A stretch of 64,000 nucleotides of DNA from an uncultured Acidobacteriota bacterium (GTDB lineage: Bacteria > Acidobacteriota > Vicinamibacteria > Fen-336), in NCBI GenBank assembly GCA_963823195.1, contig CAWGKR010000005.1, forward strand, positions 418,042-482,041, given 5' to 3'. Under the pieces are notes generated by a model. It was not told the DNA's origin. It saw nothing but the letters and a program-made list of their open reading frames with translations, and did not search any database. Positions 21,600-63,355 of this stretch are shown here, piece by piece (within the stretch, counting starts at the first letter, position 1; each line of letters opens with the position of its first letter). Position numbers and translations under genes: made by a program.

Positions 21600-21612
21600 G
21601 CCGCCTGTTGCC

Positions 21613-23613: not shown

Positions 23614-24359
23614 GCCACCTCGAGGCCCGGGGCCTCGTCAAGACCTACGGCCGCCGGGTCGTGGTGAAGAGGGTGAGCGTCTCGATCGAGGAGGGGGAGG
23701 TCGTGGGGCTCCTGGGACCCAACGGAGCCGGCAAGACGACGACGTTCTACATGGTGGTCGGCCTGGCGCGCCCCGACAGCGGGCAGGTCCTCCTCGGCGA
23801 CGAGGACATCACGGCGCTCCCGATGTACCAGCGGGCGCGGAAGGGCATCGGGTACCTGCCCCAGGAGGCCAGCATCTTCCGCAAGCTCTCGGTGGAGGAC
23901 AACGTCGTAGCCATCCTCGAGACGCGCGGCCTTCGACCGACCGAGCAGAGACAGAGGGCCCGGGAGCTCCTCGAGGAGCTGAAGATCCTGCCCCTCGCGC
24001 GGCAGCCGGCCTACACACTTTCGGGGGGAGAGCGACGGCGCCTCGAGATCTGCCGCGCCCTCGCGACCTCGCCGTCCTTCATCCTCCTCGACGAGCCCTT
24101 CGCGGGCATCGATCCCATCGCGCTCCGGGAGATCCAGGGCATCGTGAGCCACCTCAAGGACCGTGGAATCGGAGTGCTCATCACCGATCACAACGTCCGC
24201 GAGACCTTGAAAATCACCGACCGGGCCTATATTCTCACCGATGGTGAGGTCTTTCGCGCGGGGACGCCGAAGGAGCTCGCCTCCGACCCGGAGGTCCGCA
24301 GGGTCTATCTGGGCGACACGTTCCGACTCGACCACGAGATCGGGGAAGCGTTGCGATGA
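23610..24359 (+). CDS. lptB: LPS export ABC transporter ATP-binding protein
   Basis: Walker [10 protein letters not shown], signature [11 protein letters not shown], Walker B FILLDEP, and the LptB-type tail EVRRVYLG. Confidence 0.9.
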
Positions 24360-24395
24360 TCGCGACCCCCCGGCTCCAAGGCTGACCCTTTGGTG

Positions 24396-38035: not shown

Positions 38036-39235
38036 CTACGCCCGCAAGAGCTGCCAGACGAAGCCCGGATCGAGGGCGCTCTTCGCCGGCACGAAGTCGC
38101 CGGCGATGCCCACGAGCTGATCGGCGAGATCCGGGCGTCTCGCCAGGCGCTTCGCCACCGCGTCCCCCAGGGCCGGCCAACCCACAATCGTCTGCATCAG
38201 CCGGTTGACGCGGAACTTGTCCCGGGTGGCCCGGTGGCGGGCGCGGTCATAGTCCCGCAGGTCCGGCACGCCGCGGGCGGCGAGGGCCTGATGCCCCACG
38301 GCTGCGGCCATCTCGGCTCCGCGGAGGGCCAGCGTGACGCCTTCGCCGGTGAACGGGTCGTAGAACCCGGCGGCGTCCCCCACGAGGAGGGCACCGGGTG
38401 CCGAGACACGGCGGGCCTCGAGGGCCAGTGGGCCGATGGCCCGGGGCCCATCGACGAGGCGAGAGCCCTCGAGGCGCTCCGCAATTCGCGGCCAGCGCTC
38501 TCGCAGCTCGCGGCGGTAGAAGCCTTCGAGGTCTCCCGCCGCGGCCCGCAGCGACCGGGCCTCGAGGACGAACGCGACGTTGGCCAGGTCCGGCGACAGG
38601 GGAGCGATGCCGCAGTAGCCCCCCTGGCCCACGTGCATCTCGCCGCGCTCCTCGAGTCCCTGGATCCCTTCCCAGTATCCGCGGACGGCGAAGCGTCGCA
38701 TCGTGCGGTGCTCACGCAGCAGGCCGAGACCGCGGGCCACGACGCTTCGGCGCCCCTCGGCTCCGACGACGAGGCGCGCGCCGACCGTCTCGGGGCCACG
38801 ATGGCTCTCGCAGGCCAGGCCGATCGCCTCGCCGCCGCCGCCACGAACGAGCCCCGTCACCCGCGCTCCCTCCCGGACCTCGACGCCCGCGTCCCGAGCG
38901 GCCGACAGCAGCACGGCGTCGAGACGCTCCCGCCGAACGGCGAACCCGGGGCGGGAGATCCGACGATAGTCGCCCCGAAACTCCGTGCCGTCGGTGGACG
39001 TGAGGGCCATCCCTCGGACCGGGAAGGGGCGCAGCCCCCGCACGGCGGCCGCGGCTCCCAGGTCCTCGAGGAGCCTCCACGCTTCTGGGGAGACGCTCTC
39101 GCCGCAGATCTTGTCCCTGGGGAAGCGCGCGGCGTCGAGAAGGAGCACGTCGTGGCCGCGCTGGCGCAGGAAGATCGCCGTGGCCGCCCCGGCTGGACCG
39201 CCTCCCGCCACGACGACCTCGCGCGCTTCGGTCAT
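38036..39235 (-). CDS. FAD-dependent oxidoreductase (geranylgeranyl-reductase/aromatic hydroxylase-like)
   Basis: Intact 399-aa ORF with VVVAGGGPAGAATA (dinucleotide fold) and LVGDAAGFYDPFTGEG. The start overlaps the methyltransferase stop. Confidence 0.8.
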   Translation of the reverse strand: MTEAREVVVAGGGPAGAATAIFLRQRGHDVLLLDAARFPRDKICGESVSPEAWRLLEDLGAAAAVRGLRPFPVRGMALTSTDGTEFRGDYRRISRPGFAVRRERLDAVLLSAARDAGVEVREGARVTGLVRGGGGEAIGLACESHRGPETVGARLVVGAEGRRSVVARGLGLLREHRTMRRFAVRGYWEGIQGLEERGEMHVGQGGYCGIAPLSPDLANVAFVLEARSLRAAAGDLEGFYRRELRERWPRIAERLEGSRLVDGPRAIGPLALEARRVSAPGALLVGDAAGFYDPFTGEGVTLALRGAEMAAAVGHQALAARGVPDLRDYDRARHRATRDKFRVNRLMQTIVGWPALGDAVAKRLARRPDLADQLVGIAGDFVPAKSALDPGFVWQLLRA

Positions 39236-39906
39236 GCCGCCCTCTCGGCCACGGCCACGAGGCGATACGGGAACGAGCGACGGATCCTCACGCCCGGGAT
39301 CCCCGCGTCCGCGAAGGCGGCCCGCAGCTCCTCGGGGCGGAAGGCGCGGCGTATGGAGAGAAGGCCGTCGGCCACGCTGACGGGCGAACGGAAGAGGAGC
39401 GGGAAAGCCACGCGGCCGAAGAGATACGGGACCCGGGCCCGGTGGAGGTCGTTGACGACCAGGGCGCGGCGCGCCAGGGCGAAGAGCGACGCCAGGAGCG
39501 GAGCCACGGCGGGCGCGTCGAAGTGATGAAGGAACAGCGATGCCGTCACCACGTCGAACGAGCGCGGGCGGAACGGCAGGCGAAGAACGTCTCCCAGGAC
39601 GCGCTCGACGCCGGCGGGGGTCTGCCGAAGGTGGACGAGCTTGATGTCCAGCCCCACGACGACGAGACGTCCGCCCAGCTCGCCGCGCAAGCCGTGAGGC
39701 ACGTCAGCCGAGCCGCACCCGACGTCGAGGAGGCAGGGGCGCGGGCACCCCGCCAGGAAGGGGCCCACGGCCTGCCGCATCGAGCGCCGGCCGCCGAGCC
39801 ATCGGTTGACGAAGCGGAGGTCCGCCAGGCTGCGGACCGCCTCCGCCTCGTCCACCCCTTCGTCGAGGAGCTCCGGATCGGTGGCTCTCTTCGAGAAATC
39901 CGGCAT
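39232..39906 (-). CDS. Class I SAM-dependent methyltransferase
   Basis: Intact 224-aa ORF with SAM motif I LLDVGCGSADV. It abuts the PKS stop (39907) with no gap. Confidence 0.8.
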   Translation of the reverse strand: MPDFSKRATDPELLDEGVDEAEAVRSLADLRFVNRWLGGRRSMRQAVGPFLAGCPRPCLLDVGCGSADVPHGLRGELGGRLVVVGLDIKLVHLRQTPAGVERVLGDVLRLPFRPRSFDVVTASLFLHHFDAPAVAPLLASLFALARRALVVNDLHRARVPYLFGRVAFPLLFRSPVSVADGLLSIRRAFRPEELRAAFADAGIPGVRIRRSFPYRLVAVAERAA

Positions 39907-40975
39907 TCAGCAGAACTCGAGGAGCGCGAACTCGGCGCCGAACCCGGGCCCGAAGGCGCCCAGGAGACCCTTCTCGCCGGCGCGCACGTCGGCGCAGCGG
40001 AGCATCTCGTCCAGGACGAAGAGGACCGTCACCGAGCTCATGTTCCCGTGGGCCGCCAGGACTGCCTCGGTGGGGGCCAGGTCGCACGGCCTGAGGCCGA
40101 GGCGCTCGGTCATCACCTCGATGATCTTGCGCCCGCCGGGATGCAGGATCCATCGGCTGATGTCCGCCCGCGACAGGCTCCGGGGGCCCAGGAAGGCGTC
40201 GACGCCGGCTTTCACCTCGCGCTCGACGAAGGGAGCCAGCTCACGGTCCAGGATGATCTGGAGCCCCTGGTTGCGCAGCCGGAAGCCCATGAGGTGCGTG
40301 GTGCCGGGGAAGAAGAAGCTGTCGGCGTCGAGGAGACGCACGAGGCCGGCGGAGGCGAGCGGGTGGTCCGCCCCCACGAGTACGGCCGCCGCGCCTCCGT
40401 CGCCGAAGATGGCCGACGACACGATGTTGGTGGCGGAGCGGTCCCAGCGCTGGAACGTCAGGCTGGACAGCTCGACGGCCAGCACGAGGGCGGCGCGATC
40501 GGGGTGCGCCGCGAGGTGGTCCGCGGCTCGGGCGAGCCCCACGACGCCCCCCGCGCACCCGCTCTCGGTGATGGGGAGGCGGACGAGGCGCGGGCCGAGG
40601 CCGAGAGCGTCGGCCACGTAGGCATCGAGAGCCGGGATCATGAAGCCGGTGCACGAGACGCTGACGACCAGATCGACGTCGGCCGGCACGAGACCGGCGC
40701 TCGCCAGGGCTCGCCGCCCCAGGTCCACCGCGATATCCCGCGCGAACTCGCCGTACCGGTCGTTCTGCCCCTCGAAGTCGCGGGGGAAGAAGACCTCCTC
40801 GATGGGCACCACGCTGGCCCGGGAGGCGACGCCCGCGGCGGCGTACACGGGAAGGAGACGCAGGGCGTTCGGGTCGTCGCTCTCGGCGAGCCACTCCTCG
40901 ACCCAACGCGTGACGATCTCCTGGTCGTACCGGATACGGAGGAACGAACCGCTCGACCGAGAGCACGGTGGCCAT
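39907..40975 (-). CDS. Type III polyketide synthase (chalcone/stilbene synthase family); one frame break (~40932)
   Basis: Catalytic contexts ESGCAGGV (Cys), WILHPGGRKI (His) and HGNMSSVTV (Asn). The N-terminus MATVLSVERFVPPY|RYDQEIVTRWVEEW joins across two frames. Confidence 0.85.
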
Positions 40976-41008
40976 CGGCGAACGGAGGATCAAGCGCTCG
41001 GGTGGTCC

Positions 41009-50035: not shown

Positions 50036-50794
50036 GTGTTGATCACCATCGCCATCGCCAACCAGAAGGGCGGCGTCGGGAAGACGACGACCGCGATCAA
50101 CCTCGCCGCGGCCCTGGCCATGCGCGGACGTCGGACGCTGCTCGTCGACCTGGATCCCCAGGGGAACTCGTCGATGACGTACCTCGACGTCCGGTCGCTG
50201 GCGCGGTCGATGTACGACGTCCTGGGCGAGGGGATCCCGCTGGCGGACGTCATCATTCCCTCGGCGGTCCCGAATCTGGAGCTGGCGCCGTCGCGCATCT
50301 CCCTTGCGAAGATCGAGGCCAAGCTCGTCGGAGAGATCGACGGCCACTTCAAGCTGAAGGACGCCATCGAGAGCATCCGGGACCGCTTCGAGTTCGTGAT
50401 CATCGACACGCCGCCGGCCCTCGGCCTCATCACCGTCAACGCGCTGGTGGCCGCCACGCATCTGCTCGTCCCCGTGCAATCGAGCTACTTCGCCTTGGAG
50501 GGGACCGACGACCTTCTCGAAACCGTGGAGAAGATCCGTTCCCGGCCCAACCCGAACCTCAAGCTGCTGGGAGCCGTCATCACGCTCCACGACAAGCGCA
50601 CGACGCTGTCCCGAGACGTCCAGAAGGCCATCGGGAACGTCTTCGGAGATCGCGTCTTCCAGACGACCATCAGCAAGAGCATCCGTCTCGAGGAGAGCCC
50701 GGCCCACCGCGAGTCCATCTTCACTTTCGCGCCGCAATCCACCGGCGCCTACGAGTACTACCGCCTCTGCGAGGAGGTGATCGAACGTGTCTAA
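50036..50794 (+). CDS. parA: ParA/Soj chromosome partitioning ATPase
   Basis: Deviant Walker A IANQKGGVGKTT, with VIIDTPPALG and LEESPAHRESI. Confidence 0.9.
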   Translation: MLITIAIANQKGGVGKTTTAINLAAALAMRGRRTLLVDLDPQGNSSMTYLDVRSLARSMYDVLGEGIPLADVIIPSAVPNLELAPSRISLAKIEAKLVGEIDGHFKLKDAIESIRDRFEFVIIDTPPALGLITVNALVAATHLLVPVQSSYFALEGTDDLLETVEKIRSRPNPNLKLLGAVITLHDKRTTLSRDVQKAIGNVFGDRVFQTTISKSIRLEESPAHRESIFTFAPQSTGAYEYYRLCEEVIERV

Positions 50795-51632
50795 CATCCG
50801 CCGTATGGGCCTTCCCGACGCTCTGCGCATGCGTCACGACTCCCACTTCGTCGAACAGCTCGGACGCCCCGGGGGGACGCCGGTGGGACGCCTCATTCCC
50901 ATCGAGGACATCGAACCCAACCCCCACCAGCCGCGCCAGGCGCTCGGGGACCTGTCCGAGCTGATCGCGTCCATCCGCGAGAAGGGGATTCTCGAACCGA
51001 TCCTGGTGCGGCCGAAGGGGAGCCGCTTCCAGATCATCGCCGGCGAGCGACGCTTCCGCGCTGCGACCGAGGCGGGGCTGGCCGACATCCCGTGCGTCGT
51101 GCGTGACACCTCCGACGCCGAGACCATGGAGATCGCGCTCATCGAGAACCTCCAACGCAAGGATCTCAGCGCCTTTGAAGAAGCCGACGGCCTCAAGACG
51201 TTGGCCGAGACGTATGGTTATACGCACGAAAAGATGGCCGAGAAGATCGGGAAGAGTCGGAGCGCCCTGACCGAGACGCTCTCTCTCACGGCCATGCCGG
51301 ATCACGTTCGAGAGCTTTGTCGGCTGGCCGACATTTCGTCTAAGTCATTGCTGCTACAGATTGTTAGGCAATCTGATTCCAAGAAAATGGTCGCCTTGGT
51401 CGGCCAACTGCAGCAAGAGGGCGCCACGCGAGAGACCGCTCGTCGGCTCGCGCGAGAGGGCAAGCCCAAGACGGCAGCCAAGGGCCGCCCGCAGAACTAT
51501 GTCTTCCGTTACCAGCCGAAGGAGAGGTCGTTCTCCCTCGCCCTTCAGTTCCGGAAGAGCCAGGTTCCCCGCGAGGAGATCGTTCGCGCCCTGCAAGCCA
51601 TCATCGAAGACCTGACCCGCGAAGACGAGTAG
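50787..51632 (+). CDS. parB: ParB/Spo0J partition protein
   Basis: Overlaps parA by 8 nt. ParB box PNPHQPRQ and ILVRP...FQIIAGERRFRA, HTH GYTHEKMAEKIGKSRSALTETL. The 3' third is markedly lower in GC. Confidence 0.9.
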   Translation: MSNIRRMGLPDALRMRHDSHFVEQLGRPGGTPVGRLIPIEDIEPNPHQPRQALGDLSELIASIREKGILEPILVRPKGSRFQIIAGERRFRAATEAGLADIPCVVRDTSDAETMEIALIENLQRKDLSAFEEADGLKTLAETYGYTHEKMAEKIGKSRSALTETLSLTAMPDHVRELCRLADISSKSLLLQIVRQSDSKKMVALVGQLQQEGATRETARRLAREGKPKTAAKGRPQNYVFRYQPKERSFSLALQFRKSQVPREEIVRALQAIIEDLTREDE

Positions 51633-51876: not shown

Positions 51877-52951
51877 ATGAAAGCCGGCACGCGCATCCAC
51901 CGCCTGGCGAGGATCGCCGGGAAGGTGGCCTGGGCGCTACTCGACCGAAGCCATCCCCTGCTCGTCCACGTGGTCCCGATGCGGCGCTGCAACCTCTCCT
52001 GCGCCTACTGCAGCGAGTACGACACCGTCTCGAAGCCGGTGGCGCTCGCCGCGATGCTCGAGCGGATCGACCGGCTGGCCGACCTGGGCACCGCGATGGT
52101 GACCGTCAGCGGCGGCGAGCCCCTGATGCACCCGGACCTCGAGCGCATCGTGGCTCGCGCGCGCCAGCGGGGGATGCTCGTCTCGCTCATCAGCAACGGG
52201 TACTACCTCTCGCCCGAGCGGATCGACGCCCTGAACCGGGCGGGGCTCGACCACTTCCAGATCAGCATCGACAACGTGGAGCCCGACGAGAGCTCGACCA
52301 AGAGCCTGCGCGTCCTGGAGCCCAAGCTCCGGTGGCTCGCGGAGCGGGCCGACTTCACGGTCACGATCAACTCCGTGCTGGGCGGCGGCGTGAAGAAGCC
52401 CGAGGACGCGGTGGTGATCGCCCGGCGCGCGCGGGAGCTGGGCTTCGGTAGCTCCCTCGGCATCGTTCACGACGGCCACGGCCAGCTGAAGGCCTTGAGC
52501 CCCGCCGAGATGAGGGTCTACGAGGAGCTGCGCCGGATGCAGGGGCGCGGCTTCTCGCGCCTCAATCGGCGCTTCCAGGACAACCTGGCCCATGGGCGCC
52601 CCCACGAGTGGAGCTGCCGGGCCGGGGCGCGCTATCTCTACGTCGACGAGAAGGGAATCGTCAGCTACTGCTCCCAGCAGCGCGGCATGCCCGGGATTCC
52701 CCTCGAGCGCTTCACGCCGCGAGGACGTCCGGCGCGAGTACCGGTCCAAGAAGAGCTGCGCTCCCTTCTGCACGGTGAACTGCGTCCAGCAGGTCGCCCT
52801 GCTCGACAACTGGAGATCCCCCCAGACGCGTCTGCGGCCGGTCTTCCCTCGAACGCGGGGGTCCCGCGCCGCCCACGCCCCCGGGGCCCCAGGGCGACGG
52901 CGTTCTCGCCGGGTAGCCGGATGCCTGAGCCCGATCTCCGCGCTCTGGTGA
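51877..52951 (+). CDS. Radical SAM protein with SPASM-like Cys-rich C-terminus; frame break (~52720). The real stop may be TAG 52914-52916.
   Basis: CNLSCAYC (CxxxCxxC) near the N-terminus and the GGEPL motif. C-terminal Cys clusters WSCRAG...VSYC and KKSCAPFCTVNC. Confidence 0.7.
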
Positions 52952-53711
52952 CCGGTGCCTCCAGCGGCATCGGCGCCTCGTTCGCCCGCGCCATCCGTTC
53001 CCGCGGCGAGCGCCTGGTGCTCGTGGCACGGCGTGAGGATCGCCTGCGCGTCGCTCGCACAGGAGCTCGGCGGCGGCGGGGACGTGGCCGTCGTCGTTGC
53101 CGACCTGGCCGCGCCCGACGGGCCCGAGCGGCTCCAGGCGGAGGTCGAGCGCGCGGGGTTCCAGGTCGACTTCCTCGTGAACAACGCGGGATCCGGCGAC
53201 ACCGGGCGCTTTCGCCGACCAGCCGATCGAGCGCCTGCGCGCCATGATCGACCTGAACGCCCGCGCCCTGGTGGAGCTGACCCGGCGCTTCCTCCCCGGG
53301 ATGATCCAGAGGGGACGCGGCCGGATCGTCAACGTGGTCTCCAACGGGGCCTTCCAGCCCGTCCCGTATCTGAACGTCTACGCCGCGACGAAGAGCCTCG
53401 TGCTCTCGTTCACCGAGGGGCTGGCCACGGAGCTCGAGGGGACCGGGGTTCGCGTGCAGGCGCTGTGTCCCGGCCTCACCGAGACCGAGTTCTTCGACGT
53501 CGCCCGGACGAGCAGGGACCTCATGGTCAACCGGCTCCCGCGGATGACCCCCGAGGACGTGGTCGCCTGCTCGCTTCGGGGGCTGGAGAAGGGGAGGCTC
53601 CGGGTCATCCCGGGTTTCCAGAACCGCCTCCTCGCGTCGGTCGTGCGCTTCGTCCCTCGTTCGCTGGCCCGAGGGATCGCGGCGAGGCTCTACAAGCCCC
53701 GGTACCCCTGA
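52921..53711 (+). CDS. Classical short-chain dehydrogenase/reductase; two frame breaks (~53045, ~53215)
   Basis: TGASSGIG, NNAG and the YAATK (YxxxK) catalytic motif. The pieces lie in three + frames and end at 53711. Confidence 0.8.
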
Positions 53712-53733
53712 CGGGGAGGCGCCCCGGCTTTTT
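53712..53733 (+). terminator. Weak intrinsic terminator after the SDR gene
   Basis: CGGGG-AGGCG-CCCCG hairpin followed by GCTTTTTG. Confidence 0.35.
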
Positions 53734-53765
53734 GTGGTGGCGGGCTTCCCCGGACCCCCAAGGGC

Positions 53766-53774: not shown

Positions 53775-53853
53775 ATCGAGTCGCTTTTGTGACCCCCGGG
53801 CCATCCCTTTCGCCCGTCTCGTCCGGGGATGCCAATGATTTGAGGTGCAGCCT

Positions 53854-55134
53854 ATGGACGCGGTCCAGAAGAAGGACGCCGCCAAGCCGACGTTCTCGGA
53901 CTACGACTACAGCAATTTCTACTACGGCGCGGGAGACGACCCCGTCAACCTCCTGGGGCCCTTCCGGGACTGGTACGAGGAGGCCGTCCCGAACGGCTAC
54001 TACCTCTACTCCGAGCCCCTGGAGACGGCGCCCACCACGAGGGCGCGGGTCAAGAACCGGAAGACGGGCGTCGTCCAGGACCTGCTGAACCTGGCCTCCT
54101 ACAACTATCTGGGGATCTCGTATCGCCCGGAGGTGAAGAAGGCCGCCATCGACGCCGTCGAGAAGTACGGCCTCGGGGCCTCCGGCTCGCCGATCCTCTC
54201 GGGAACGATGGACGTCCACTTGAAGCTCGCCGACGCCATGGCCCGCTTCAAGGCCAAGGAAGCGGCGATCCTGTTCCCGACGGGATACAGCGCCAACGTG
54301 GGCTTCATCTCGAGCCTGATGCGGGCGGGGGACAACGTCATCATCGACCAGTACTCCCACGCCTCCATCGTCGACGGGGCGATCCTGGCGAAGTCCAAGA
54401 CCGTCTTCTTCCGCCACAACAACCCCATGGACCTGGAGCGGAAGCTCCTGAAGTGCACGGGGAAGAAGCTCGTCATCGTCGAGGGCGTGTACTCGATGGA
54501 CGGCGACGTCTGCCAGCTCCCGGAGATCGTCGAGGTGTGCAAGCGCCACGGCGCCCGGATCCTGATCGACGAGGCCCACTCGACGTTCCTCTTCGGCCCC
54601 AACGGGCGCGGCGTGGCCGAGCACTTCGGCCTCGACAAGGAGGTCGACTTCCACCTCGGGACCTTCTCGAAGAGCCTCGGCGGGCAGGGCGGCTTCGTGT
54701 GCGGATCGAAGGACCTGATCGACTACGTCAACGCATTCGGCCGGTCGCGGTTCTTCTCGTGCAACCTGGCGCCGCCCATCGCCGCGGGCCTGTTGGCGGG
54801 CGTCGAGATCGTCGAGAACGAGCCGCAGCTCCGCGCCAAGCTCTGGAGCAACGTGGCCTACCTCCGGCGCCGGTTCGCCGAAGAGGGAATCGACATCGGC
54901 AAGAGCACGTCCCAGGTGATGCCGGTCCTGGTGAACAACGACGCCAAGGTGTTCGCCGTCGCCGAGAAGATCCAGAACCGCGGGCTCTATCTCCAGCCGG
55001 TCACCTACCCGGCGGTGCCGAAGCACAAGTCCCGCCTCCGCATCTCGGTCTCCGCCGCCCACAGCGAGGCGGAGCTCGAGTTCGCGGTGGGCGTCATCGG
55101 CGGCGTGCTCCGGGAAGAGGGGATCATCCATTGA
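53854..55134 (+). CDS. Alpha-oxoamine synthase, serine-palmitoyltransferase-like (PLP-dependent)
   Basis: Intact ORF (ATG 53854 follows a GAGG Shine-Dalgarno; GTG 53845 is also possible). PLP-lysine GTFSKSLGG, and blocks NYLG, FRHNNPMDLERKL, EGVYSMDGD, DEAHSTFLFGPNGRGV. From memory, these resemble Sphingomonas Spt more than BioF. Confidence 0.75.
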   Translation: MDAVQKKDAAKPTFSDYDYSNFYYGAGDDPVNLLGPFRDWYEEAVPNGYYLYSEPLETAPTTRARVKNRKTGVVQDLLNLASYNYLGISYRPEVKKAAIDAVEKYGLGASGSPILSGTMDVHLKLADAMARFKAKEAAILFPTGYSANVGFISSLMRAGDNVIIDQYSHASIVDGAILAKSKTVFFRHNNPMDLERKLLKCTGKKLVIVEGVYSMDGDVCQLPEIVEVCKRHGARILIDEAHSTFLFGPNGRGVAEHFGLDKEVDFHLGTFSKSLGGQGGFVCGSKDLIDYVNAFGRSRFFSCNLAPPIAAGLLAGVEIVENEPQLRAKLWSNVAYLRRRFAEEGIDIGKSTSQVMPVLVNNDAKVFAVAEKIQNRGLYLQPVTYPAVPKHKSRLRISVSAAHSEAELEFAVGVIGGVLREEGIIH

Positions 55135-55800
55135 AGACCCGGTACGGGTACTCCAACGCCATCAGCGGCTTCTTCGAGTTCCCGACCGAGAACGCCCGCC
55201 GGATCCTGCCCGCGCACCTGGAGCCCGTGGAGCTTCACCACGGGACCAGCATCTTCTCGATGACCGCCTTCGACTTCACCGAGAGCGAGGTCGGCGCCTA
55301 CGGCGAGGCCGTCATGTCGGTCATCGTGTCCCCCCTCGTGAAGCCGGGGGAGCGCCTGCCCGAAGTCGGCGTTCTATCCCTACCTCGTCGCCACCACGAC
55401 GAAGGCCGCCCGCGACCACGCCATCGAGCGCTGGCACCTTCCGCACTGGATGGAGGACGTGGAGATGTCCTTCAGCCGCGACGGATCGCGCATCAACGCC
55501 AAGGTGTCGGCCGACGGCGCGCCCGTGGCCGAGCTCACGATCAGCGACCACTCCTGGAACCCCGTCTCGCACCTGTACCAGTCCTTCATGAGGAACGACA
55601 ACGGGGCCTACCTGGCGAACATCGTCATGGAGGGGGACCAGAGCGAGCACGAGGAGGAGACCGGACTCCTGGTGCTCTCGGACCATCCGTTCAACCGGGA
55701 CCTGGTCATCTCGGAGGTCTACGAGATCCCGTTCCGCGAGATCTGGATGCGCAGCGGCGCCCAGACCTTCGATCCGCTGATCCAGCTCCAGACCGCCTGA
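55131..55800 (+). CDS. Acetoacetate decarboxylase (ADC)-like family protein; one frame break (~55358)
   Basis: TTG 55131 overlaps the upstream stop. The reconstructed sequence ...GERLPKSAFYPYLVATTTKAARDHAIERWHLPHW... fits the ADC-like beta-cone family pattern. Confidence 0.5.
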
Positions 55801-55828
55801 CGTCGCACCGCCTGGATCGAGAGCCGAT

Positions 55829-56743
55829 TTGAACAGCGACGAGCGCGTCTTCGTCATCTTCAACCCGCGCTCGGGTCGGGGGCGCGGGGCACAGGTCGTG
55901 GCCCCGGTCTTGGACGCCCTGTCGGCCCACAAGGGCGTCGAGCATGCCCTCACCGGCGCGCCCGGCGACGAGGAGCGCCTCGCGACGGAGGCCATCGGCC
56001 GGGGCTTCTCGACGATCGTGGCCGTCGGCGGCGACGGCACGTGGAGCAACGTGGGCAACGGCATCTTGAAGTCCGGGAAGCCGGTGAAGCTGGGGCTCAT
56101 CGCGGGCGGGACCGGCTGCGACCTGGCCAAGTCGCTGGGCATCCCGGGAAAGGACCTGCGGGCCGCGGGCCGCGTCATCCTCGATGGGCACACCCGGAAG
56201 ATCGACGTGGGACGCATCGAGGAGCGCTACTTCCTCAACATCGCGGGGTTCGGCTACGACATCGCCGTCATCGAGGATTCCTGGACCGTCGGGTACCTCG
56301 AGGGAGAGTTCCTCTACCTCTATTGCGCCGTCCGGCAGCTCGGCTCGTTCCCCGGCTTTCCGGTCGAGGTCGCGACCGACGGGGGCCCCTTCGTGCCTCA
56401 CGAGCTCCTGATGCTGATCCTCGCCAACGCGCGCGTCTTCGGCGGGGGCTTCAAGATCGCGCCCGACGCGGACCTGGGGGACGGCCGGCTCGACGTCATG
56501 GCGTTCCGCAACATGGGGTTCTGGGAACGGGTCGGGATCATGGTGAGGCTCCTGCGCGGCACCCATCGCGGCAGCGCCCACGTGGCGGCCTCCAGCGCGT
56601 CGTCCCTCACGCTGCGCTTTCCCTCGCCCCCGGCCTACGAGACCGACGGGGAGTGGAACCGAGCCAAGTCGGCCGAGCTCCGGGTCGAGACGATCCCCGG
56701 CGCCCTCGAGGTGCTCGTTCCCGCCGGCGCTCCGCCCCGATGA
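55829..56743 (+). CDS. DAGK/LCB5-family lipid kinase (YegS/BmrU-like)
   Basis: Intact 304-aa ORF with VFVIFNPRSG, AVGGDGTWSNV and GTGCDLAKSLG. Confidence 0.8.
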   Translation: MNSDERVFVIFNPRSGRGRGAQVVAPVLDALSAHKGVEHALTGAPGDEERLATEAIGRGFSTIVAVGGDGTWSNVGNGILKSGKPVKLGLIAGGTGCDLAKSLGIPGKDLRAAGRVILDGHTRKIDVGRIEERYFLNIAGFGYDIAVIEDSWTVGYLEGEFLYLYCAVRQLGSFPGFPVEVATDGGPFVPHELLMLILANARVFGGGFKIAPDADLGDGRLDVMAFRNMGFWERVGIMVRLLRGTHRGSAHVAASSASSLTLRFPSPPAYETDGEWNRAKSAELRVETIPGALEVLVPAGAPPR

Positions 56744-57525
56744 TCCTGGCCATGAGAGCCGCTCGGAGCGCGCTCTCGCTGCTCGTCGTGCTGTCGTGGA
56801 TGGTGCTCGTCGGGGCGCCGCTCCTGTACCTCCTCGTCCTTCCGGTCGGCGCCTGCCTCTCGGGACGGCCGCGGCGCGCCCTGACGTCCGCCTACATGAA
56901 GCTCATCTGCGCCGGGATCCTGGCGGGGTTCCGGCTCGGGGGAGCGCGCTTCGAGCGGCGAGGCACGATCCCGACCGACGGCCATTCGCTCATCCTGATG
57001 AACCACCAGTCCCTCCTGGACATCGTCACCGTCACCCTCATGGGCCAACCGTACGTCCCGGCGTTCGTGCCTCGCCTCCGGTACGCCCGCTGGTACATCC
57101 TGCTGGTCGGCGCGAGCATCTGGCTCCTGGATTGCCCCGTGGTCGACCCGAAGCGAGACCCCAAGGGCGCCGTCTCCGCCATGCGCCGCGCGGCCCTCGA
57201 GCATGGCCACGGCCTTCTCGTGTTTCCCGAGGGACACCGCAGCGTCGACGGCGAGGTGCGTCCGTTCAAGACGGCCGGTACGCTGGCCGCACTCGCCGCT
57301 CGGCGCCTCCCGGTGTACGTCGTGGTGAGCGACGGCTTCTCGTTCGGCCGCCGCCTCGTGGACTTCCTCTGGAGCGTTCCACAGATCCGCGGGGAGACGG
57401 AGATTCTCGGACCCTTCGCGCCCCCCGAAGGCGAGGAGGACCTTCTCCCGTTCATCCACGAGATGCGAGGGGTCATCGTGGATCGGCTTCGCGAGCTCAG
57501 GGCCAGGCGCCATGCCGGCGTCTGA
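56740..57525 (+). CDS. PlsC/LPLAT-family acyltransferase with N-terminal TM helices
   Basis: ATG 56740 overlaps the kinase stop. Acyltransferase motifs NHQSLLD (HxxxxD) and FPEGHRS. Confidence 0.8.
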   Translation: MILAMRAARSALSLLVVLSWMVLVGAPLLYLLVLPVGACLSGRPRRALTSAYMKLICAGILAGFRLGGARFERRGTIPTDGHSLILMNHQSLLDIVTVTLMGQPYVPAFVPRLRYARWYILLVGASIWLLDCPVVDPKRDPKGAVSAMRRAALEHGHGLLVFPEGHRSVDGEVRPFKTAGTLAALAARRLPVYVVVSDGFSFGRRLVDFLWSVPQIRGETEILGPFAPPEGEEDLLPFIHEMRGVIVDRLRELRARRHAGV

Positions 57526-58498
57526 TCCGCTCCGGGAGGCCATCCGGGCCCGCGCCTTTTCGCGGGCCCCGCAGGCCGAAGCCGAGGCGCTGGCGCGCAC
57601 CGTGGTGGAGGGCGGCGGAGACAGCGTGCTCGGCGTCGTCTTCTTCGGCTCCCGGAAGACCCAGGCGAGCCCCGATCCGTGGAGCGGCTACGACCTCTTC
57701 GTCCTGACCCGCGAATACCGCTCCTTCTATCGCTCCTTGAAGGCCGCCGGGGCCCTCCGGCGGAGCCGGAGCGTGGTGGCCGCGCTCAACGCGATCCTGC
57801 CCCCGAACCAGATCTCGGTGCGTGGCGCGGGGGAGTCGCGGGCCCTCGCCAAGTGCGCCGTCATCTCCCTCGCCACGCTGCGCCGGGAGACATCCCCGAA
57901 GCGGCGCGACCACTTCTGCGCCGGCCGCCTCTTCCAGCCGACGGAGGTTCTCTACGCCCGCGACGAGGTCACGGCCGACGTGATCCTGGACGCGCTCGTG
58001 AGCGCCCATGCCATGACCCTGTCCTGGATCCGGCCCTGGCTCCCGCCGACGTTCGACGTGGAAGCGTATTGCCGGACGCTCCTGCGCGTGTCCCTCGGAC
58101 GCGAGATCCGCCCCGAGCCCGAGGGGCGCTCCGAGGCACTCTGGCAGGCGCAGAAGGACTATCTCGAAGCGGTCTACGGGATCTTCCTGCGCGGCCAGGC
58201 CACGGCGGGGGAGCTGCGCGTCGCGGGCAACGGCCTCTATTCCCTGGCCCGGCCCGTGTCGGCGGGCGAGCGACGGCGCCTCGAGGCCTACTTCCGCCGG
58301 TCGAAGGTCCGGGCCACGGAGCGGTGGTTCAAGTACATGGTCACCTTCGAGGACTGGCTCGAGTACATCGTCCACAAGGCCGAGCGCCATTCGGGCGAGG
58401 AGATCGTCCTGACACCTCGCGAGCGCCGGCTGCCGATCGTCTTCCTCTGGCCGCGGGTGATACGCTACCTCCGCGACAAAGGCCGGCCCCGGCGATAG
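57512..58498 (+). CDS. Tam41/Mmp37-like nucleotidyltransferase-fold protein (putative lipid-phosphate cytidylyltransferase)
   Basis: Intact 328-aa ORF. By-eye alignment to yeast Tam41 recalled from memory: VVFFGSRKTQ vs FGYGSGVFEQ; KCAVISLATL...FCAGRLFQPTEVL vs KYGVVSMETL...YLAGRLQKPVKIL; FDVEAYCRTLLRVSLGREIR vs FDEFQFYKEITALSYAGDIR. The family assignment needs an HMM check. Confidence 0.45.
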   Translation: MPASDPLREAIRARAFSRAPQAEAEALARTVVEGGGDSVLGVVFFGSRKTQASPDPWSGYDLFVLTREYRSFYRSLKAAGALRRSRSVVAALNAILPPNQISVRGAGESRALAKCAVISLATLRRETSPKRRDHFCAGRLFQPTEVLYARDEVTADVILDALVSAHAMTLSWIRPWLPPTFDVEAYCRTLLRVSLGREIRPEPEGRSEALWQAQKDYLEAVYGIFLRGQATAGELRVAGNGLYSLARPVSAGERRRLEAYFRRSKVRATERWFKYMVTFEDWLEYIVHKAERHSGEEIVLTPRERRLPIVFLWPRVIRYLRDKGRPRR

Positions 58499-58513
58499 GA
58501 GCGCCCACACCGC

Positions 58514-59251
58514 GTGCGTCCCTCGGTCCTCGTGCTCATCGGCGTGCTCGCCGCGGCCTTCCTCTCCATGGCCGTCTACGCCGCCGTGGGCCGCGGCCGC
58601 GACGCCGATGCGACGAAGAAGGGCACGCGCCTCTTCCTCGGAGGCCTGGACTTCCTCGTCCACTGGTTCCTCTGGGCCCTGGCGCCGGCGGAGCGCCTCT
58701 TCCTCCGCCTCGGCTTCACGCCCGACGTCTTCAACTTCACGGGGCTCGGCTTCGGCCTGGCGAGCGGCGTGGCCCTGGGCCTGGGGGAGCTGGAGCTCGG
58801 CGGATGGGCCATCGCCCTGGGAGGCATCTCCGACATCCTCGACGGCCGGATCGCCCGGGCCAGGAACCTTGCGTCTCCCTACGGGAAGTTCATCGACAGC
58901 ACCCTGGATCGCTTCGTCGAGGTCTTCGCGTTCCTCGGTCTCGTGGTCTATTTCCGCGACCGGCCGGTCGGGGCGTTCCTGGCGGCGGCGTCCATGGCCG
59001 GGTCGCTCCTCGTGAGCTACGCCCAGGCGCGGGGCGAGACCGTCGCCGTCAGCGGCTCCGGCGGCCTCATGCAGCGGGCCGAGCGTCTCGTGCTCATGTG
59101 CCTGGTTTGCCTGATCGACCCGACCCTGTCGGCCTGGCGGGGCTGGTCCGAAGGGACCGCCGTCTTCGGGGTCCTGGTGCTCATGGCGGTCGCCACGTTC
59201 GCCACGGCCATCCACCGGACCGTGTGGATCGCCCGGCGCCTCCGGTCCTGA
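58514..59251 (+). CDS. CDP-alcohol phosphatidyltransferase family protein
   Basis: GTG start; 245 aa, multi-TM. Motif DILDGRIAR-x8-G-x3-D-x3-D. Confidence 0.85.
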   Translation: MRPSVLVLIGVLAAAFLSMAVYAAVGRGRDADATKKGTRLFLGGLDFLVHWFLWALAPAERLFLRLGFTPDVFNFTGLGFGLASGVALGLGELELGGWAIALGGISDILDGRIARARNLASPYGKFIDSTLDRFVEVFAFLGLVVYFRDRPVGAFLAAASMAGSLLVSYAQARGETVAVSGSGGLMQRAERLVLMCLVCLIDPTLSAWRGWSEGTAVFGVLVLMAVATFATAIHRTVWIARRLRS

Positions 59252-59839: not shown

Positions 59840-60106
59840 ATGAAATCCATCGTGGGTGAGCGTGGGCAGGTCACGATCCCCAAGGTCCTTCGGCGGAGCC
59901 TCGGCCTGCGCGCCGGAGAGGAGGTCCAGTTCGAGGAGCGCCACGGAGCGATCGTCCTCTCCAGGGCACCCCGGTCGGACCCGTGGGACGCCCTGGTGGG
60001 CATCGTCAAGAACCTTGACGTGGACGCATCCCTCGACACCCTGAGGGGGCCGGCCTGGCGAGCTGGGAGCGACGCGCGGGTCGCCAAGAGGCGCCGCCGA
60101 AGATGA
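59840..60106 (+). CDS. vapB: AbrB/MazE/SpoVT-family antitoxin (VapB-like)
   Basis: ATG 59840 follows an AGAGG Shine-Dalgarno. Looped-hinge-helix N-terminus GERGQVTIPKVLRRSLGL. The stop overlaps the vapC start (ATGA). Confidence 0.8.
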   Translation: MKSIVGERGQVTIPKVLRRSLGLRAGEEVQFEERHGAIVLSRAPRSDPWDALVGIVKNLDVDASLDTLRGPAWRAGSDARVAKRRRRR

Positions 60107-60516
60107 TCACGGCCGTGGACTCGTCGGTCCTCCTGGACATCCTGACGGCGGACGCTCGCTTCGGCGAGGCCTCGTTGGCGGCTGTTCGCGGGGCCCAGCG
60201 TCTGGGGGCCCTGGTGGCCTGCCCGGTGGTCTGGGCCGAGGTCCGGGCGCTGACGGCTGACGTGGCCGTCCTCCGGGAACGTCTGCCGAGCGCCGGGGTT
60301 CATTTCGACCCGTTCGACGAGGAGGCGGCGGAGCTTGCCGGCACGATCTGGCGCTCGTACCGCCGCCAGGGAGGGTCGCGTGATCGACTCGTCCCGGATT
60401 TCCTGATCGGAGCCCACGCGCAGGTCCGCGGCGGGGGCCGGCTCCTGTCCCGGGACCGAGGGTTCTACCGCAGGTACTTCCGCAGCCTGAAGCTCATCGA
60501 CCCGAGCGACCGCTAG
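60103..60516 (+). CDS. vapC: PIN-domain ribonuclease toxin VapC
   Basis: Intact 137-aa ORF with N-terminal acidic residue VDSSVLLD, and DFLIGAHA...LLSRD. Confidence 0.8.
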   Translation: MITAVDSSVLLDILTADARFGEASLAAVRGAQRLGALVACPVVWAEVRALTADVAVLRERLPSAGVHFDPFDEEAAELAGTIWRSYRRQGGSRDRLVPDFLIGAHAQVRGGGRLLSRDRGFYRRYFRSLKLIDPSDR

Positions 60517-60595: not shown

Positions 60596-61183
60596 TCAGA
60601 CCCCGGCCAGACGCTCCAATTCGGTCACCACCCGCCCCAGCTCCTCGACGAGCCAGCTCGAACCTGCGGACTGGAAGGCCGACACCAGGGCCCGGTAGTA
60701 CCACAAGGTCCCTTCCTTGCCTCCGCTGAACCGGTCCCAGAGCGGCTCACCGAGGGTCCGGTAGTCCACGAGGATGGCTCGCGCGTTGTAGAGCTTGTCC
60801 GCGGCAGATACGCGCCGCGCGTCTGCCTCCGCGCCGGCTATGTGGGCCACGTACCGTTCCTTGCGCCCGCGCCACGGAGGCTTCGGGGTCGTGTCGGCAT
60901 CCGTGCAGGCTTCGACGATGCCGGCGACCCGGTCTCCGAACCGCCGCCTTATCGTCTCGAGGGTCGGCAGGCCGCCCTGGTCCTCCACGGCATCGTGCAG
61001 GAGGGCTGCGATGGCCTCGTCCTCGTCGCCGCCGGCTTCCAGGACCAGCGCCGCCACGCCAAGGAGGTGCGACACGTACGGGACCTTGGTTCCCTTTCGG
61101 ATCTGACGGGCGTGAAGCCTCGAGGCGAAGACCAACGCGTCGTCGAATCGCTGGGTCAGAAGGCCGCCCACGATCGGGATCAT
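60596..61183 (-). CDS. HD-domain protein resembling the RelA/SpoT (p)ppGpp hydrolase domain (small alarmone hydrolase-like)
   Basis: Intact 195-aa ORF with FASRLHARQIRKGTKVPYVSHLLGVA and AALLHDAVED (HD motif). Confidence 0.7.
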   Translation of the reverse strand: MIPIVGGLLTQRFDDALVFASRLHARQIRKGTKVPYVSHLLGVAALVLEAGGDEDEAIAALLHDAVEDQGGLPTLETIRRRFGDRVAGIVEACTDADTTPKPPWRGRKERYVAHIAGAEADARRVSAADKLYNARAILVDYRTLGEPLWDRFSGGKEGTLWYYRALVSAFQSAGSSWLVEELGRVVTELERLAGV

Positions 61184-61234
61184 ACACCCCGCCTCTCCCC
61201 CACCCGCGAGGCGCCGGGGGAGAGGCGGGGCATA

Positions 61235-63355
61235 ATGACCATCACCATGACGACGAAGAAGCGCGTCGTGCTACCCCTCCTTCTCCTGGTGACCATGAAG
61301 AGTGCCTCCCTTGGCGCGGAAGCGCCGCCGCCGACCGATGATCCCTACCTCTGGCTCGAGGACGTCACGGGAGAGAAGGCTCTCGCCTGGGTCAAGGAAC
61401 AGAACGCCCTCAGCGTCGGAGAGCTCGGCGCCTCGGGCGCCTTCAAGTCCCTCGACGGGCGGTTCCTCAAGATCCTCGACTCCGAGGCCAAGATTCCGTA
61501 CGTCGAAAAGCTCGGCGACCTCTACTACAACCTCTGGCGGGACGCCGAGCACGAGCGCGGCGTCTGGCGACGCACGACCCTCGCCGAGTACCGCAAGGCG
61601 GAGCCGTCCTGGGAAGTGGTCCTCGATCTCGATGCGCTCGGGAAGACCGAGAACGAAAACTGGGTCTGGCACGGCGCCGAGTGCCTGAAGCCCGACTACA
61701 AGCGCTGCCTCGTCTCGCTGTCCCGCGGCGGCGCCGACGCCGACGTGACCCGCGAGTTCGACCTCGCCGCGAAGCAGTTCGTCCCGGGGGGCTTCTCGCG
61801 CCCGGAGGCGAAGGGGTCCCTCGGCTGGATCGACCTCGACACCGTCTACCTCTCGACCGATTTCGGCCCGGGCTCGATGACCCAGTCCGGCTATCCGCGC
61901 ATCGCCAAGGAGTGGCGCCGGGGAACTCCGCATGGACCAGGCCCGGACCGTCTACGAAGGCAAGCCCGAGGACATCTCTGTTGGGGCGTTCCGCGACCAT
62001 ACTCCGGGATACGAGCGCGACTTCGTCTACCGCGGCCCGACGTTCTTCACGAGCGAGGTCTATCTCCGCCGGGACGGCGCCCTCGTGGCCATCGACAAGC
62101 CCGCCGACGCCCAGCTGTCCGTCTACCGCGACCTTCTTCTTCTCACGCTGCGAAGCGACTGGACCGTCGGCGGGCGGACCTACCGCGCCGGCTCGCTCCT
62201 CGCGTCGGACTTCGAGGCCTTCCTCAAGGGCTCGCGGACTCTCGACGTGCTCTTCGAGCCCACCGCCCGCGCCTCCCTGGCCAGCTTCAGCCCGACCCTC
62301 CACCACATCCTTCTCAATACACTCGACAACGTTCGGAGCCGCGTCGAGGTCCTCACCCGCAAGGCCGGAGCGTGGACCCGGCAGCCACTCCCCGGCGTGC
62401 CGGACTTCGGCAGCGTGGACGCGACGGCCGTGGAGCCGGACCGCTCCGACGAGTTCTTCCTCACCGCAGACGACTTCCTGACTCCGACCAGTCTCTCTCT
62501 CGGCGTCGCAGGCACCAATGCCCGGGCGGACCGCTTGAAGTCCCTGCCCTCGTTCTTCGAGGCCGGCGACCTCGCCATCTCCCAGCACGAGGCCGTCTCG
62601 AAGGACGGCACCCACGTCCCGTACTTCCAGGTCTCGCGAAAGAACGTGGCGACCGATGGCACGAACCCGACGCTTCTCTACGGATACGGCGGGTTCGAGA
62701 TCTCCATGACTCCCGACTACGGCGGCGCTGAACGGGGCGGGATGGCTCGAGAAGGGCGGCGTCTACCTTCTCGCCAACATCCGCGGCGGAGGCGAGTTCG
62801 GACCGGAGTGGCACCACGCCGCCCTCAAGGAGAATCGCCACAAGGCCTACGAGGACTTCATCGCCGTCGCGGAAGACGCCATCGCGCGGAAGCTCACCTC
62901 GACACCCACACCTCGGCATCATGGGCGGCAGCAACGGCGGCCTGCTCATGGGCAACATGCTCACCATGCGGCCCGACCTCTTCGGCGCCGTGGTCTGCCA
63001 GGCGCCGCTTCTCGACATGAAGCGCTACTCCCATCTGCTCGCTGGCGCCAGCTGGATGGAGGAGTACGGCGACCCCGACGATCCGGCCCAATGGGAGTTC
63101 CTGAAGACGTTCTCCCCCTACCAGCAGCTCGCGAAGGGAGTCCGGTATCCGCGCACGCTCTTCACGACCTCGACCCGTGACGATCGCGTCCATCCCGGCC
63201 ACGCCCGCAAGATGGCGGCCAGGATGAAGGCGTTCGGTCAGGACGTGCTCTACTACGAGAACATCGAGGGAGGGCACGGCGGCGCGGCCACCAACGCCCA
63301 GACCGCCTTCATGCACGCCCTCGCCTACACCTTCCTCTGGAACCAGCTCCGGTAG
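61235..63355 (+). CDS. S9 prolyl oligopeptidase family serine peptidase, secreted; three frame breaks (~61930, ~62740, ~62900)
   Basis: Signal peptide, then DPYLWLEDV, a beta-propeller middle, and a catalytic domain with GGSNGGLL (Ser), RDDRVHP (Asp) and GGHGG (His). The pieces lie over ORFs 60842.., 61932.. and 62921... Confidence 0.85.

Follow-up and report, generated by a model that had tools for sequence, protein, structure and literature searches.

A gene cluster shared by Acidobacteriota and other mostly uncultured bacteria joins an Spt-like synthase to a divergent Tam41-type nucleotidyltransferase: a candidate CDP-activated route to sphingolipid-like phospholipids

The gene cluster described here lies in a 64,000-nucleotide stretch of contig CAWGKR010000005.1 (positions 418,042 to 482,041), from an uncultured bacterium of the Acidobacteriota (Vicinamibacteria; Fen-336). 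This whole stretch, with a G+C content of ~69%, is called the window throughout. A first-pass annotation, working from a list of open reading frames and their translations, had placed six closely linked genes on its forward strand, and their positions and overlaps are confirmed. ORF1 (53854-55134) begins with an ATG at 53854, with an alternative GTG at 53845, and ORF2 (55131-55800) begins with a TTG at 55131 that overlaps the ORF1 stop. ORF3 (55829-56743) and ORF4 (56740-57525) share an ATGA overlap, ORF5 (57512-58498) overlaps ORF4 by 14 bp, and ORF6 (58514-59251) follows ORF5 after a gap of 15 bp. Searches of Pfam and NCBIfam returned the domains proposed for ORF1 (Aminotran_1_2), ORF3 (DAGK_cat and YegS_C), ORF4 (Acyltransferase) and ORF6 (CDP-OH_P_transf). 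ORF2 is an acetoacetate decarboxylase (ADC)-like protein and ORF5 a Tam41-like nucleotidyltransferase.

A scan of species-representative genomes gave 76 related loci, 56 of them with enough flanking DNA for gene-set counts. They belong to Vicinamibacteria and other Acidobacteriota, Gemmatimonadota (including Longimicrobiales), Latescibacterota and Krumholzibacteriia; two distant loci from Myxococcota are also among them. The alpha-oxoamine synthase (AOS, ORF1), the ADC-like protein, the kinase, the Tam41-like protein and the CDP-alcohol transferase occur together in 55 of the 56 loci with enough flank, which across so many phyla is more than chance. On these counts, conservation of the gene cluster extends over no fewer than four phyla of mostly uncultured bacteria. 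The layout of the window, with all genes collinear, is found in 36 loci, and two divergent operons, AOS-ADC-kinase and acyltransferase-Tam41-transferase, are found in 19. Acidobacteriota have the single collinear operon; Gemmatimonadota, Latescibacterota and Krumholzibacteriia have the divergent pair, in which the kinase goes with the synthase and a reductase, apart from the Tam41 module. Among the 55 loci, 35 contain the acyltransferase, 33 a short-chain dehydrogenase/reductase (SDR) and 20 a radical-SAM gene. The six-gene unit first envisaged is thus conserved as a core of five with an optional acyltransferase, and it was drawn too narrowly, as a ketoreductase and often the radical-SAM gene are also members of the cluster.

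Searched with its sequence alone, ORF5 has no match in Pfam, NCBIfam or the PDB sequences, the Tam41 model PF09139 giving none even at an E-value of 10, and a narrow profile of 30 ORF5 sequences likewise retrieves nothing from the PDB. Its relationship emerges from structure and from a deeper profile. When the AlphaFold model (pLDDT 84.5) is compared with the PDB by Foldseek, the top five matches are all Tam41 (E 1e-7, probability 1.0, TM 0.50-0.63) and the next are aminoglycoside nucleotidyltransferases, with TM below 0.36. A profile of 68 ORF5-family sequences finds Tam41 of S. pombe (6ig2, E 1.3e-11) and of a member of the Firmicutes (7ecd, E 1.4e-7), with the blocks YGS, DF, KY, GRxxKP and SYxG[DE]xR in alignment. 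Residues G46, S47, D61, K114, R139, K274, K289 and R292 are invariant in the family, in which D61 is not joined by a second invariant acidic residue. Tam41 proteins, which are CDP-diacylglycerol (CDP-DAG) synthases, also have a single acidic nucleotidyltransferase residue, plus basic residues that hold CTP (PMC11646218). Distant members of the ORF5 family score above the PF09139 cut-off themselves (P0123, 29 bits; L073, 33 bits; P0190; P0237). By fold, profile, residue signature and these distant Pfam matches, ORF5 is a divergent nucleotidyltransferase of the Tam41/Mmp37 superfamily. The first-pass call of a Tam41-like protein therefore stands at the level of fold, broad profile and residues, and finds no direct match for the ORF5 sequence itself. 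We predict that ORF5 is a CTP:lipid-phosphate cytidylyltransferase.

Clustered at 50% identity, the ORF5 family falls into ~1,000 groups, and those close relatives that the searches listed are unannotated or named "hypothetical protein". More distant relatives share 25-35% identity with ORF5; they are recognised by the Pfam Tam41 model and occur away from any AOS, some of them alone. The ORF5 clade escapes that model and is tied to the AOS, and this divergence together with this linkage would fit a changed substrate. One of the distant relatives, at locus L084 (5788-7703), is 25% identical to ORF5, is recognised by Pfam and overlaps a DAGK_cat kinase gene at that gene's end; neither a synthase nor a CDP-alcohol transferase is found nearby, and the pair may serve a kinase-to-CDP-DAG salvage route in another lineage.

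Gene fusions connect ORF5 to its neighbours on both sides. The acyltransferase is fused to the Tam41-like protein in P0104, P0123 and P0131, which P0121 resembles in length and layout. Fusions of the Tam41-like protein with the CDP-alcohol transferase also occur, and some carry a P450. Together the fusions indicate a likely channelling from acyltransferase through Tam41-like protein to transferase. At locus L081 (714-2984), a P450 fused to a Tam41-like protein is placed between the Tam41-like gene and the transferase, an arrangement seen in some metagenome contigs.

ORF6 is an integral-membrane CDP-alcohol phosphatidyltransferase (PF01066). Its NCBIfam scores are 113.7 bits for archaetidylinositol phosphate (AIP) synthase (cut-off 180), 95.7 for phosphatidylinositol phosphate (PIP) synthase (cut-off 170), 91 for the BT1523-type model (cut-off 350) and 22 for pgsA. 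The best PDB match is PgsA1 of M. tuberculosis (6h53), a PIP synthase in which R94, S132, R152, R155 and R195 form the inositol-phosphate pocket, with K135 and R137 nearby (PMC6506517). Across 71 orthologues of ORF6 the motif D-x2-DG-x2-AR-x8-G-x3-D-x3-D is invariant, and so are the pocket residues R94, S132, R137, R152, R155 and R195; at the position of K135, 51 have R, 19 have Q and one has E. ORF6 thus resembles the mycobacterial PIP synthase and the archaeal AIP synthase in catalytic motif and inositol-phosphate pocket. It differs from them in scoring below the equivalog cut-offs, in having mostly R or Q at K135 and in a donor that may not be CDP-diacylglycerol. ORF6 is PIP/AIP-synthase-like, and the head-group step can be narrowed to an acceptor of the inositol-phosphate type. 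Neither an inositol-phosphate synthase nor a PIP phosphatase was found among the conserved neighbours of the 76 loci or the scanned ORFs of the window.

The two remaining lipid enzymes fall into well-populated families. ORF3 is a soluble lipid kinase of the YegS/DgkB/BmrU family, with DAGK_cat and YegS_C domains, a GGDG motif in its translation and a score of 155.9 against TIGR00147 (cut-off 118.65); its best PDB match is DgkB of S. aureus. The same superfamily includes bacterial sphingoid and ceramide kinases, namely CpgB and dhSphK1 of P. gingivalis (PMC10331486). ORF4 is a membrane acyltransferase of the PlsC/LPLAT type (PF01553, 47.6 bits with a cut-off of 23, E 2e-12), with the motifs NHQSLLD (HX4D) and FPEGHRS (FPEGxR) in its translation.

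ORF1 is a PLP-dependent alpha-oxoamine synthase (PF00155, E 3e-58). Its NCBIfam scores are 363 bits for Spt-CFB (cut-off 640), 335 for Spt-BetaP (500), 269 for Spt-AlphaP (670) and 353 for BioF (426), and the KBL models are likewise below cut-off. With phmmer against the PDB, the Spt of S. multivorum comes first (306 bits), followed by Sphingomonas Spt (250), a Thermus AOS (248), ALAS (228), the best KBL (221), E. coli KBL (205), E. coli BioF (188) and CqsA (130); the classification is one of ranked scores against these references. ORF1 is 38% identical to the S. multivorum Spt and keeps the PLP-site residues, including His138, Asp210, His213 and Lys244, the last in the GTFSKS block; the roles of these residues are known for the S. 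multivorum enzyme (PMC10196870). Its orthologues are 56-86% identical across phyla, and ORF1 is about equidistant (36-40% identity) from several AOS lineages. A tblastn search against plasmids retrieves generically annotated synthases at 34-41% identity, which are uninformative for classification. ORF1 is best described as Spt-like and, by these scores, in a clade of its own. The earlier statement that the synthase is Spt-like agrees with Spt, and not BioF or KBL, being the nearest solved relative and with neighbours that are lipid genes rather than bio genes; it needs the reservation that every curated Spt cut-off is missed. Given that shortfall and the 38% identity, we infer Spt activity and the use of serine rather than read them from the match itself.

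ORF2 always lies directly after ORF1, with overlapping or abutting frames, and is conserved as well as ORF1. In the window its frame is shifted by one extra base within 55359-55362 ('ctgcccgaag', where relatives have L-P-K-S), so that the true protein corresponds to 55131-~55361 joined to ~55363-55800 and has 222 amino acids once corrected. The insertion had been overlooked in the first-pass annotation, whose description of ORF2 as ADC-like holds. The corrected protein matches the metagenome protein P0270 (100% identity over the full length in the search, one apparent residue difference in the alignment). It reaches 29.1 bits against Pfam ADC PF06314, with a gathering cut-off of 29.8, and of 20 diverse homologues the same model recognises 19, with E-values no higher than 0.1 and 1e-10 at best. 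In ADC, MppR and Sbi00515 an active-site lysine forms a Schiff base. A cross-phylum alignment of 20 ORF2-family sequences contains no invariant or nearly invariant lysine, its invariant residues being mostly His, Glu and Arg, and ORF2 is therefore not expected to work through a Schiff base as acetoacetate decarboxylase does; classical ADC chemistry was rejected on this ground. Its AlphaFold model is of low confidence (pLDDT 47, from a shallow alignment at >=79% identity), and a profile of the family gives only chance-level matches in the PDB.

Upstream of ORF1, on the same strand, lies the SDR gene (52936-53711; adh_short), recovered by tblastn in three pieces (52936-53046, 53114-53266 and 53211-53711). 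An intact orthologue has its best NCBIfam match in mycolate reductase (172 bits, cut-off 380), which is a reductase of long-chain 3-keto lipids, and the SDR is a candidate 3-keto reductase for the product of the synthase. In nine loci of Latescibacterota and Krumholzibacteriia a Zn-dependent alcohol dehydrogenase (Zn-ADH) after the kinase takes the place of the SDR. This non-orthologous replacement argues that the keto product of the synthase is a pathway intermediate. The neighbour search otherwise returned a pseudouridine synthase, a Leu/Phe-tRNA transferase, a methyltransferase, an M1 peptidase and an amidase, the Zn-ADH being the one relevant gene. Conserved neighbours include no inositol-phosphoceramide (IPC)-synthase-like transferase (PAP2/HAD) and no GNAT ceramide synthase. 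Neither the GNAT-type bCerS nor an epimerase-type CerR is present among them within ~8 kb, although linkage of these genes to spt is not obligatory.

The radical-SAM gene (51877-52891, forward strand; Pfam Radical_SAM) precedes the SDR gene and was recovered by tblastn as 51877-52713 and 52691-52891, its product having ~341 amino acids in relatives. It stands upstream of the SDR in 20 of the 55 loci, and Latescibacterota and Krumholzibacteriia have a relative 36-39% identical to it a few kb downstream; the gene or its relative was noted at L006-L023, L042, L048, L050 and L056. The protein scores below the cut-off of every NCBIfam equivalog; its best partial matches are of the PqqE/SPASM type, with a weak match to the tetraether synthase Tes. 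It is an accessory member of the cluster and probably a lipid-modifying enzyme. In one genome of the Acidobacteriota (L001, 5455-6195, reverse strand) a gene of the FA_hydroxylase family, which includes sphingolipid C4-hydroxylases, occupies the place of the radical-SAM/SDR pair beside the synthase.

What is observed are the families and folds of the proteins, the conservation of their catalytic and pocket residues, the gene fusions and the synteny across phyla, and from these a pathway can be proposed. ORF1 would condense a long-chain acyl thioester with an amino acid, serine being the likeliest, to a 3-keto long-chain base, with ORF2 working together with it, and the adjacent reductase (the SDR here, the Zn-ADH in other phyla) would reduce the ketone. 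ORF3 would then phosphorylate the C1 hydroxyl, giving a product that resembles lyso-phosphatidate, and ORF4, or an acyltransferase encoded elsewhere, would acylate the amine at position 2 to yield a ceramide-1-phosphate-like analogue of phosphatidate. ORF5 would transfer CMP from CTP onto this lipid, and ORF6 would move the lipid-phosphate from the resulting CDP-lipid onto an acceptor of the inositol-phosphate type. Dephosphorylation, by an enzyme not found here, would leave a phospho-inositol sphingolipid. In this scheme we infer all the substrates, whether kinase or acyltransferase acts first, and what the final lipid is.

Gene order in the operon follows the order of the proposed steps, and the divergent layout splits the backbone genes from the assembly genes. 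The FA_hydroxylase-family gene and the P450 fusions of some clusters also count in favour of the scheme. The housekeeping genes psd (808-1476) and pssA (~1500-2234) do lie elsewhere in the window, as the first-pass annotation had it. Ordinary CDP-diacylglycerol is therefore already required by the cell, and a further activating enzyme of the cluster's own would be superfluous if its substrates were the ordinary ones. Such redundancy presupposes cdsA in the genome; a tblastn search with E. coli CdsA gave no match in the window or in any fetched locus. We are evenly poised on the proposal that the cluster, with its five core genes and accessory members, directs phospholipid synthesis on an amino-alcohol (sphingoid-type) backbone by the logic of the CDP-diacylglycerol pathway. 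The product of such a route would probably be a phospho-inositol sphingolipid made via a CDP-activated lipid. CMP activation of an Spt-derived lipid, the central idea of the first-pass annotation, is at present a well-supported hypothesis, consistent with all the evidence and proved by none of it.

Several observations weigh against this proposal. Every one of the 76 related loci derives from a metagenome-assembled genome. ORF1 shares only 38% identity with the S. multivorum Spt and falls below every curated Spt cut-off, and its C-terminal block resembles that of KBL. The nearest solved relative of ORF3 is a diacylglycerol kinase. ORF4 is missing in 20 of the 55 loci, and PlsC-type enzymes are classically O-acyltransferases. 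ORF4, ORF5 and ORF6 each fit a textbook glycerolipid step: lysophosphatidate (LPA) to phosphatidate (PA), PA to CDP-DAG, and CDP-DAG to PIP. The kinase-Tam41 pair at L084, which has no AOS beside it, indicates that such a pairing alone does not imply a sphingoid substrate. No inositol-phosphate synthase, PIP phosphatase, bCerS or CerR is seen in the window or among the conserved neighbours, and the scheme leaves the role of ORF2 unexplained.

Could the cluster be two ordinary modules placed side by side? ORF3-ORF6 would then lead from diacylglycerol (DAG) or LPA through PA and CDP-DAG to PIP, and ORF1, ORF2 and the reductase would make a sphingoid base or ceramide. The two would meet only later, for example if phosphatidylinositol (PI) gave its phospho-inositol to ceramide and ORF3 recycled the released DAG. 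Such an arrangement takes the characterised reaction of each family as it is, from DgkB and the PlsC motifs to Tam41 and the PIP-synthase pocket, with no change of substrate. It has a precedent in Bacteroides, where inositol-phosphoceramide is made through PI (PMC9246714), and the AOS-free kinase-Tam41 pair is in its favour. However, none of the genes it would call for (a PAP2/HAD IPC-synthase-like transferase, an inositol-phosphate synthase, a PIP phosphatase) is conserved nearby, and a CDP-DAG synthase of the cluster's own would be superfluous should the genome contain cdsA, which was not seen in the fetched DNA. The divergent layout, moreover, puts the kinase with the synthase and reductase and not with the genes from PA to PIP, and the ORF5 clade is almost never found apart from the AOS (55 of 56 loci). 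We consider this arrangement, the main rival, possible, if rather unlikely.

The constant company of ORF2 opens another explanation. If ORF1 were KBL-like and converted glycine or another amino acid to a 2-amino-3-keto acid, ORF2 could decarboxylate that product, and a 1-deoxy-type amino alcohol would enter the kinase/CDP route. Decarboxylation of beta-keto acids is the named activity of the ORF2 superfamily, ORF2 follows ORF1 invariably in overlapping or abutting frames and is equally conserved, and the near-equal distance of ORF1 from several AOS lineages (36-40%) would allow for it. Yet the ORF2 family has no conserved Schiff-base lysine and its structural model (pLDDT 47) is not usable, alpha-oxoamine synthases normally decarboxylate unaided, and the nearest solved structure to ORF1 is an Spt. 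This makes the explanation an improbable one.

A route of the Kennedy type would reverse the roles of the last two enzymes, with ORF5 activating a soluble phospho-alcohol (e.g., inositol phosphate to CDP-inositol, in the manner of CpgD/IPCT) and ORF6 transferring it onto ceramide or DAG. Activated head groups of this sort do exist: the cytidylyltransferase CpgD of Caulobacter activates the head group of ceramide phosphoglycerate lipids (PMC12275187), and for some Bacteroidetes a route through CDP-inositol has been suggested (PMC9246714). Nevertheless, ORF5 has the fold and motifs of Tam41 and not the NTP_transferase/IPCT fold of CpgD, the lipid kinase would be left without a role, and the ORF6 pocket binds the phosphate of a soluble inositol-phosphate acceptor, which is the mode of a PIP synthase with a CDP-lipid donor (PMC6506517). 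The chance of such a route seems very slim.

That ORF1 is a housekeeping BioF or KBL with lipid genes beside it by coincidence can be rejected almost outright by context and scores, since, for all the closeness of its BioF (353 bits) and Spt-CFB (363 bits) scores in NCBIfam, both below cut-off, there is no bio or tdh-type housekeeping context, the same lipid genes are alongside in 55 of 56 loci across phyla, and E. coli BioF (188) and KBL (205) score far behind Spt (306 bits).

Returning to the CDP-activated sphingoid pathway, it can be framed as a "CDP-ceramide" route in Acidobacteriota (Vicinamibacteria), Gemmatimonadota, Latescibacterota and Krumholzibacteriia, in which a sphingoid base undergoes phosphorylation and acylation in the manner of lyso-phosphatidate, a neofunctionalised Tam41 activates the product with CMP, a PIP-synthase-like enzyme couples inositol phosphate to it and an ADC-fold protein is the obligatory partner of the synthase. 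In this full form we hold it tentatively, with a confidence a little short of even. The searched literature contained no description of the cluster and no mention of CDP-ceramide or of a CDP-activated sphingoid; the cluster is a set of known enzyme families in a combination that was not found described, and it includes a divergent Tam41 clade.

The closest parallel among known systems is the pathway of Caulobacter crescentus for ceramide (di)phosphoglycerate, encoded by an Spt cluster with the ceramide kinase CpgB and with CpgC, CpgA and CpgD (PMC10331486; PMC12275187). There, too, a kinase of the DAGK superfamily (CpgB) makes a lipid 1-phosphate, and building a head group with phosphate requires a CTP-dependent nucleotidyltransferase; how ceramide-1-phosphate is processed next (CpgC) still lacks a mechanism (PMC10331486; PMC12275187). 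CpgD activates a soluble head group, to CDP-glycerate, and has an IPCT/NTP-transferase fold (PMC12275187), whereas ORF5 is of the Tam41 type, a lipid-activating family. Differently from Caulobacter, a CDP-alcohol transferase of the PIP-synthase type follows the nucleotidyltransferase, the phyla are others, and there is an ADC-like gene, of which the Caulobacter account names none (PMC10331486; PMC12275187).

Tam41 itself (Mmp37, mitochondrial and bacterial; PDB 6ig2, 6ig4 and 7ecd) shares with ORF5 the fold, the aligned blocks and the combination of one acidic with several basic residues. ORF5 is, however, only ~11-14% identical to it, is not recognised by PF09139 and stands in an operon with an Spt-like synthase, for which reason its substrate is possibly not phosphatidate.

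The canonical bacterial ceramide pathway consists of Spt, the GNAT-type bCerS and CerR (Stankeviciute et al. 2022, cited in PMC10331486). It too starts with an Spt-type AOS and needs keto reduction and N-acylation. In the present cluster, by contrast, ketone reduction falls to a classical SDR or a Zn-ADH, the sole acyltransferase is of the PlsC type and optional, and three extra enzymes supply the CDP route. The inositol-lipid cluster BT_1522-1526 of Bacteroides likewise has an enzyme of the PIP-synthase type, and its end product is inositol-phosphoceramide. It uses an inositol-phosphate synthase (MIPS), a PIP phosphatase, a PI:ceramide transferase and housekeeping CDP-DAG, and contains no synthase, kinase or Tam41-like gene (PMC9246714).

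The shift in ORF2 is one of many in this DNA. The radical-SAM gene is frameshifted near 52700, as tblastn with an intact homologue reveals, the SDR gene is frameshifted twice within 53046-53266 (tblastn), and other genes of the window are fragmented as well. By eye, a prolyl-oligopeptidase-like gene at 60842-63355 runs over three frames. The scatter of frameshifts across the window and the intact ORF2 copy in P0270 speak for an indel-rich assembly and not for decay, and the pattern suggests an indel-rich (long-read) assembly rather than pseudogenes. A decayed operon was ruled out, as corrected ORF2 matches an intact protein and frameshifts occur throughout the window. Between the SDR gene and ORF1 lies a terminator-like GC hairpin followed by a T-run (53712-53736, forward strand), a consensus match only; five such sites were found with 3.1 expected by chance, which makes it weak evidence for a terminator at this position.

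Further upstream, parA and parB lie just before the cluster, both in the window (50036-51632) and in its 4-Mb relative L001 (3817-5419). The chromosomal surroundings of the cluster are therefore conserved between no fewer than two Acidobacteriota. Downstream, at a distance of a few hundred bases and past an opposite-strand DUF4440/SnoaL-like gene, there is a VapBC-type pair (59879-60516, forward strand), in which a small MazE/AbrB-like antitoxin gene overlaps a PIN-domain gene by 4 bp. On the reverse strand, a type III polyketide synthase with chalcone/stilbene-synthase domains (39907-40989) has a SAM-dependent methyltransferase (39232-39906) directly after it. The pair (39232-40989) recalls clusters for alkylresorcinols and alkylpyrones and would add a second unusual lipid locus to the window. 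With LptC/LptA-like genes and rpoN (within 21478-25817), the organism is a diderm with lipopolysaccharide transport, which bears on where a sphingolipid-like lipid might end up.

In the routes known so far, sphingolipids acquire their head groups either by transfer from a glycerophospholipid, as in enzymes of the sphingomyelin- and IPC-synthase type, or from nucleotide sugars. Caulobacter has added a third mode, with a CDP-activated head group (PMC12275187). If the proposed pathway is true, activation of the lipid itself would be a fourth, and the cluster would encode, for sphingolipids, the complete equivalent of the CDP-diacylglycerol pathway. It would also provide the first possible substrate other than phosphatidate for the Tam41 family, assign to an ADC-fold protein the hitherto undescribed part of obligatory partner of the synthase, and suggest a class of mechanism for steps that still lack one, among them the conversion that ceramide-1-phosphate undergoes in Caulobacter. 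Even a conservative reading leaves a dedicated Tam41-based route to PIP encoded beside a bacterial sphingoid module. The cluster marks abundant and poorly cultured phyla of soils and sediments, in which the lipid could serve as a biomarker and could affect the biology of the outer membrane.

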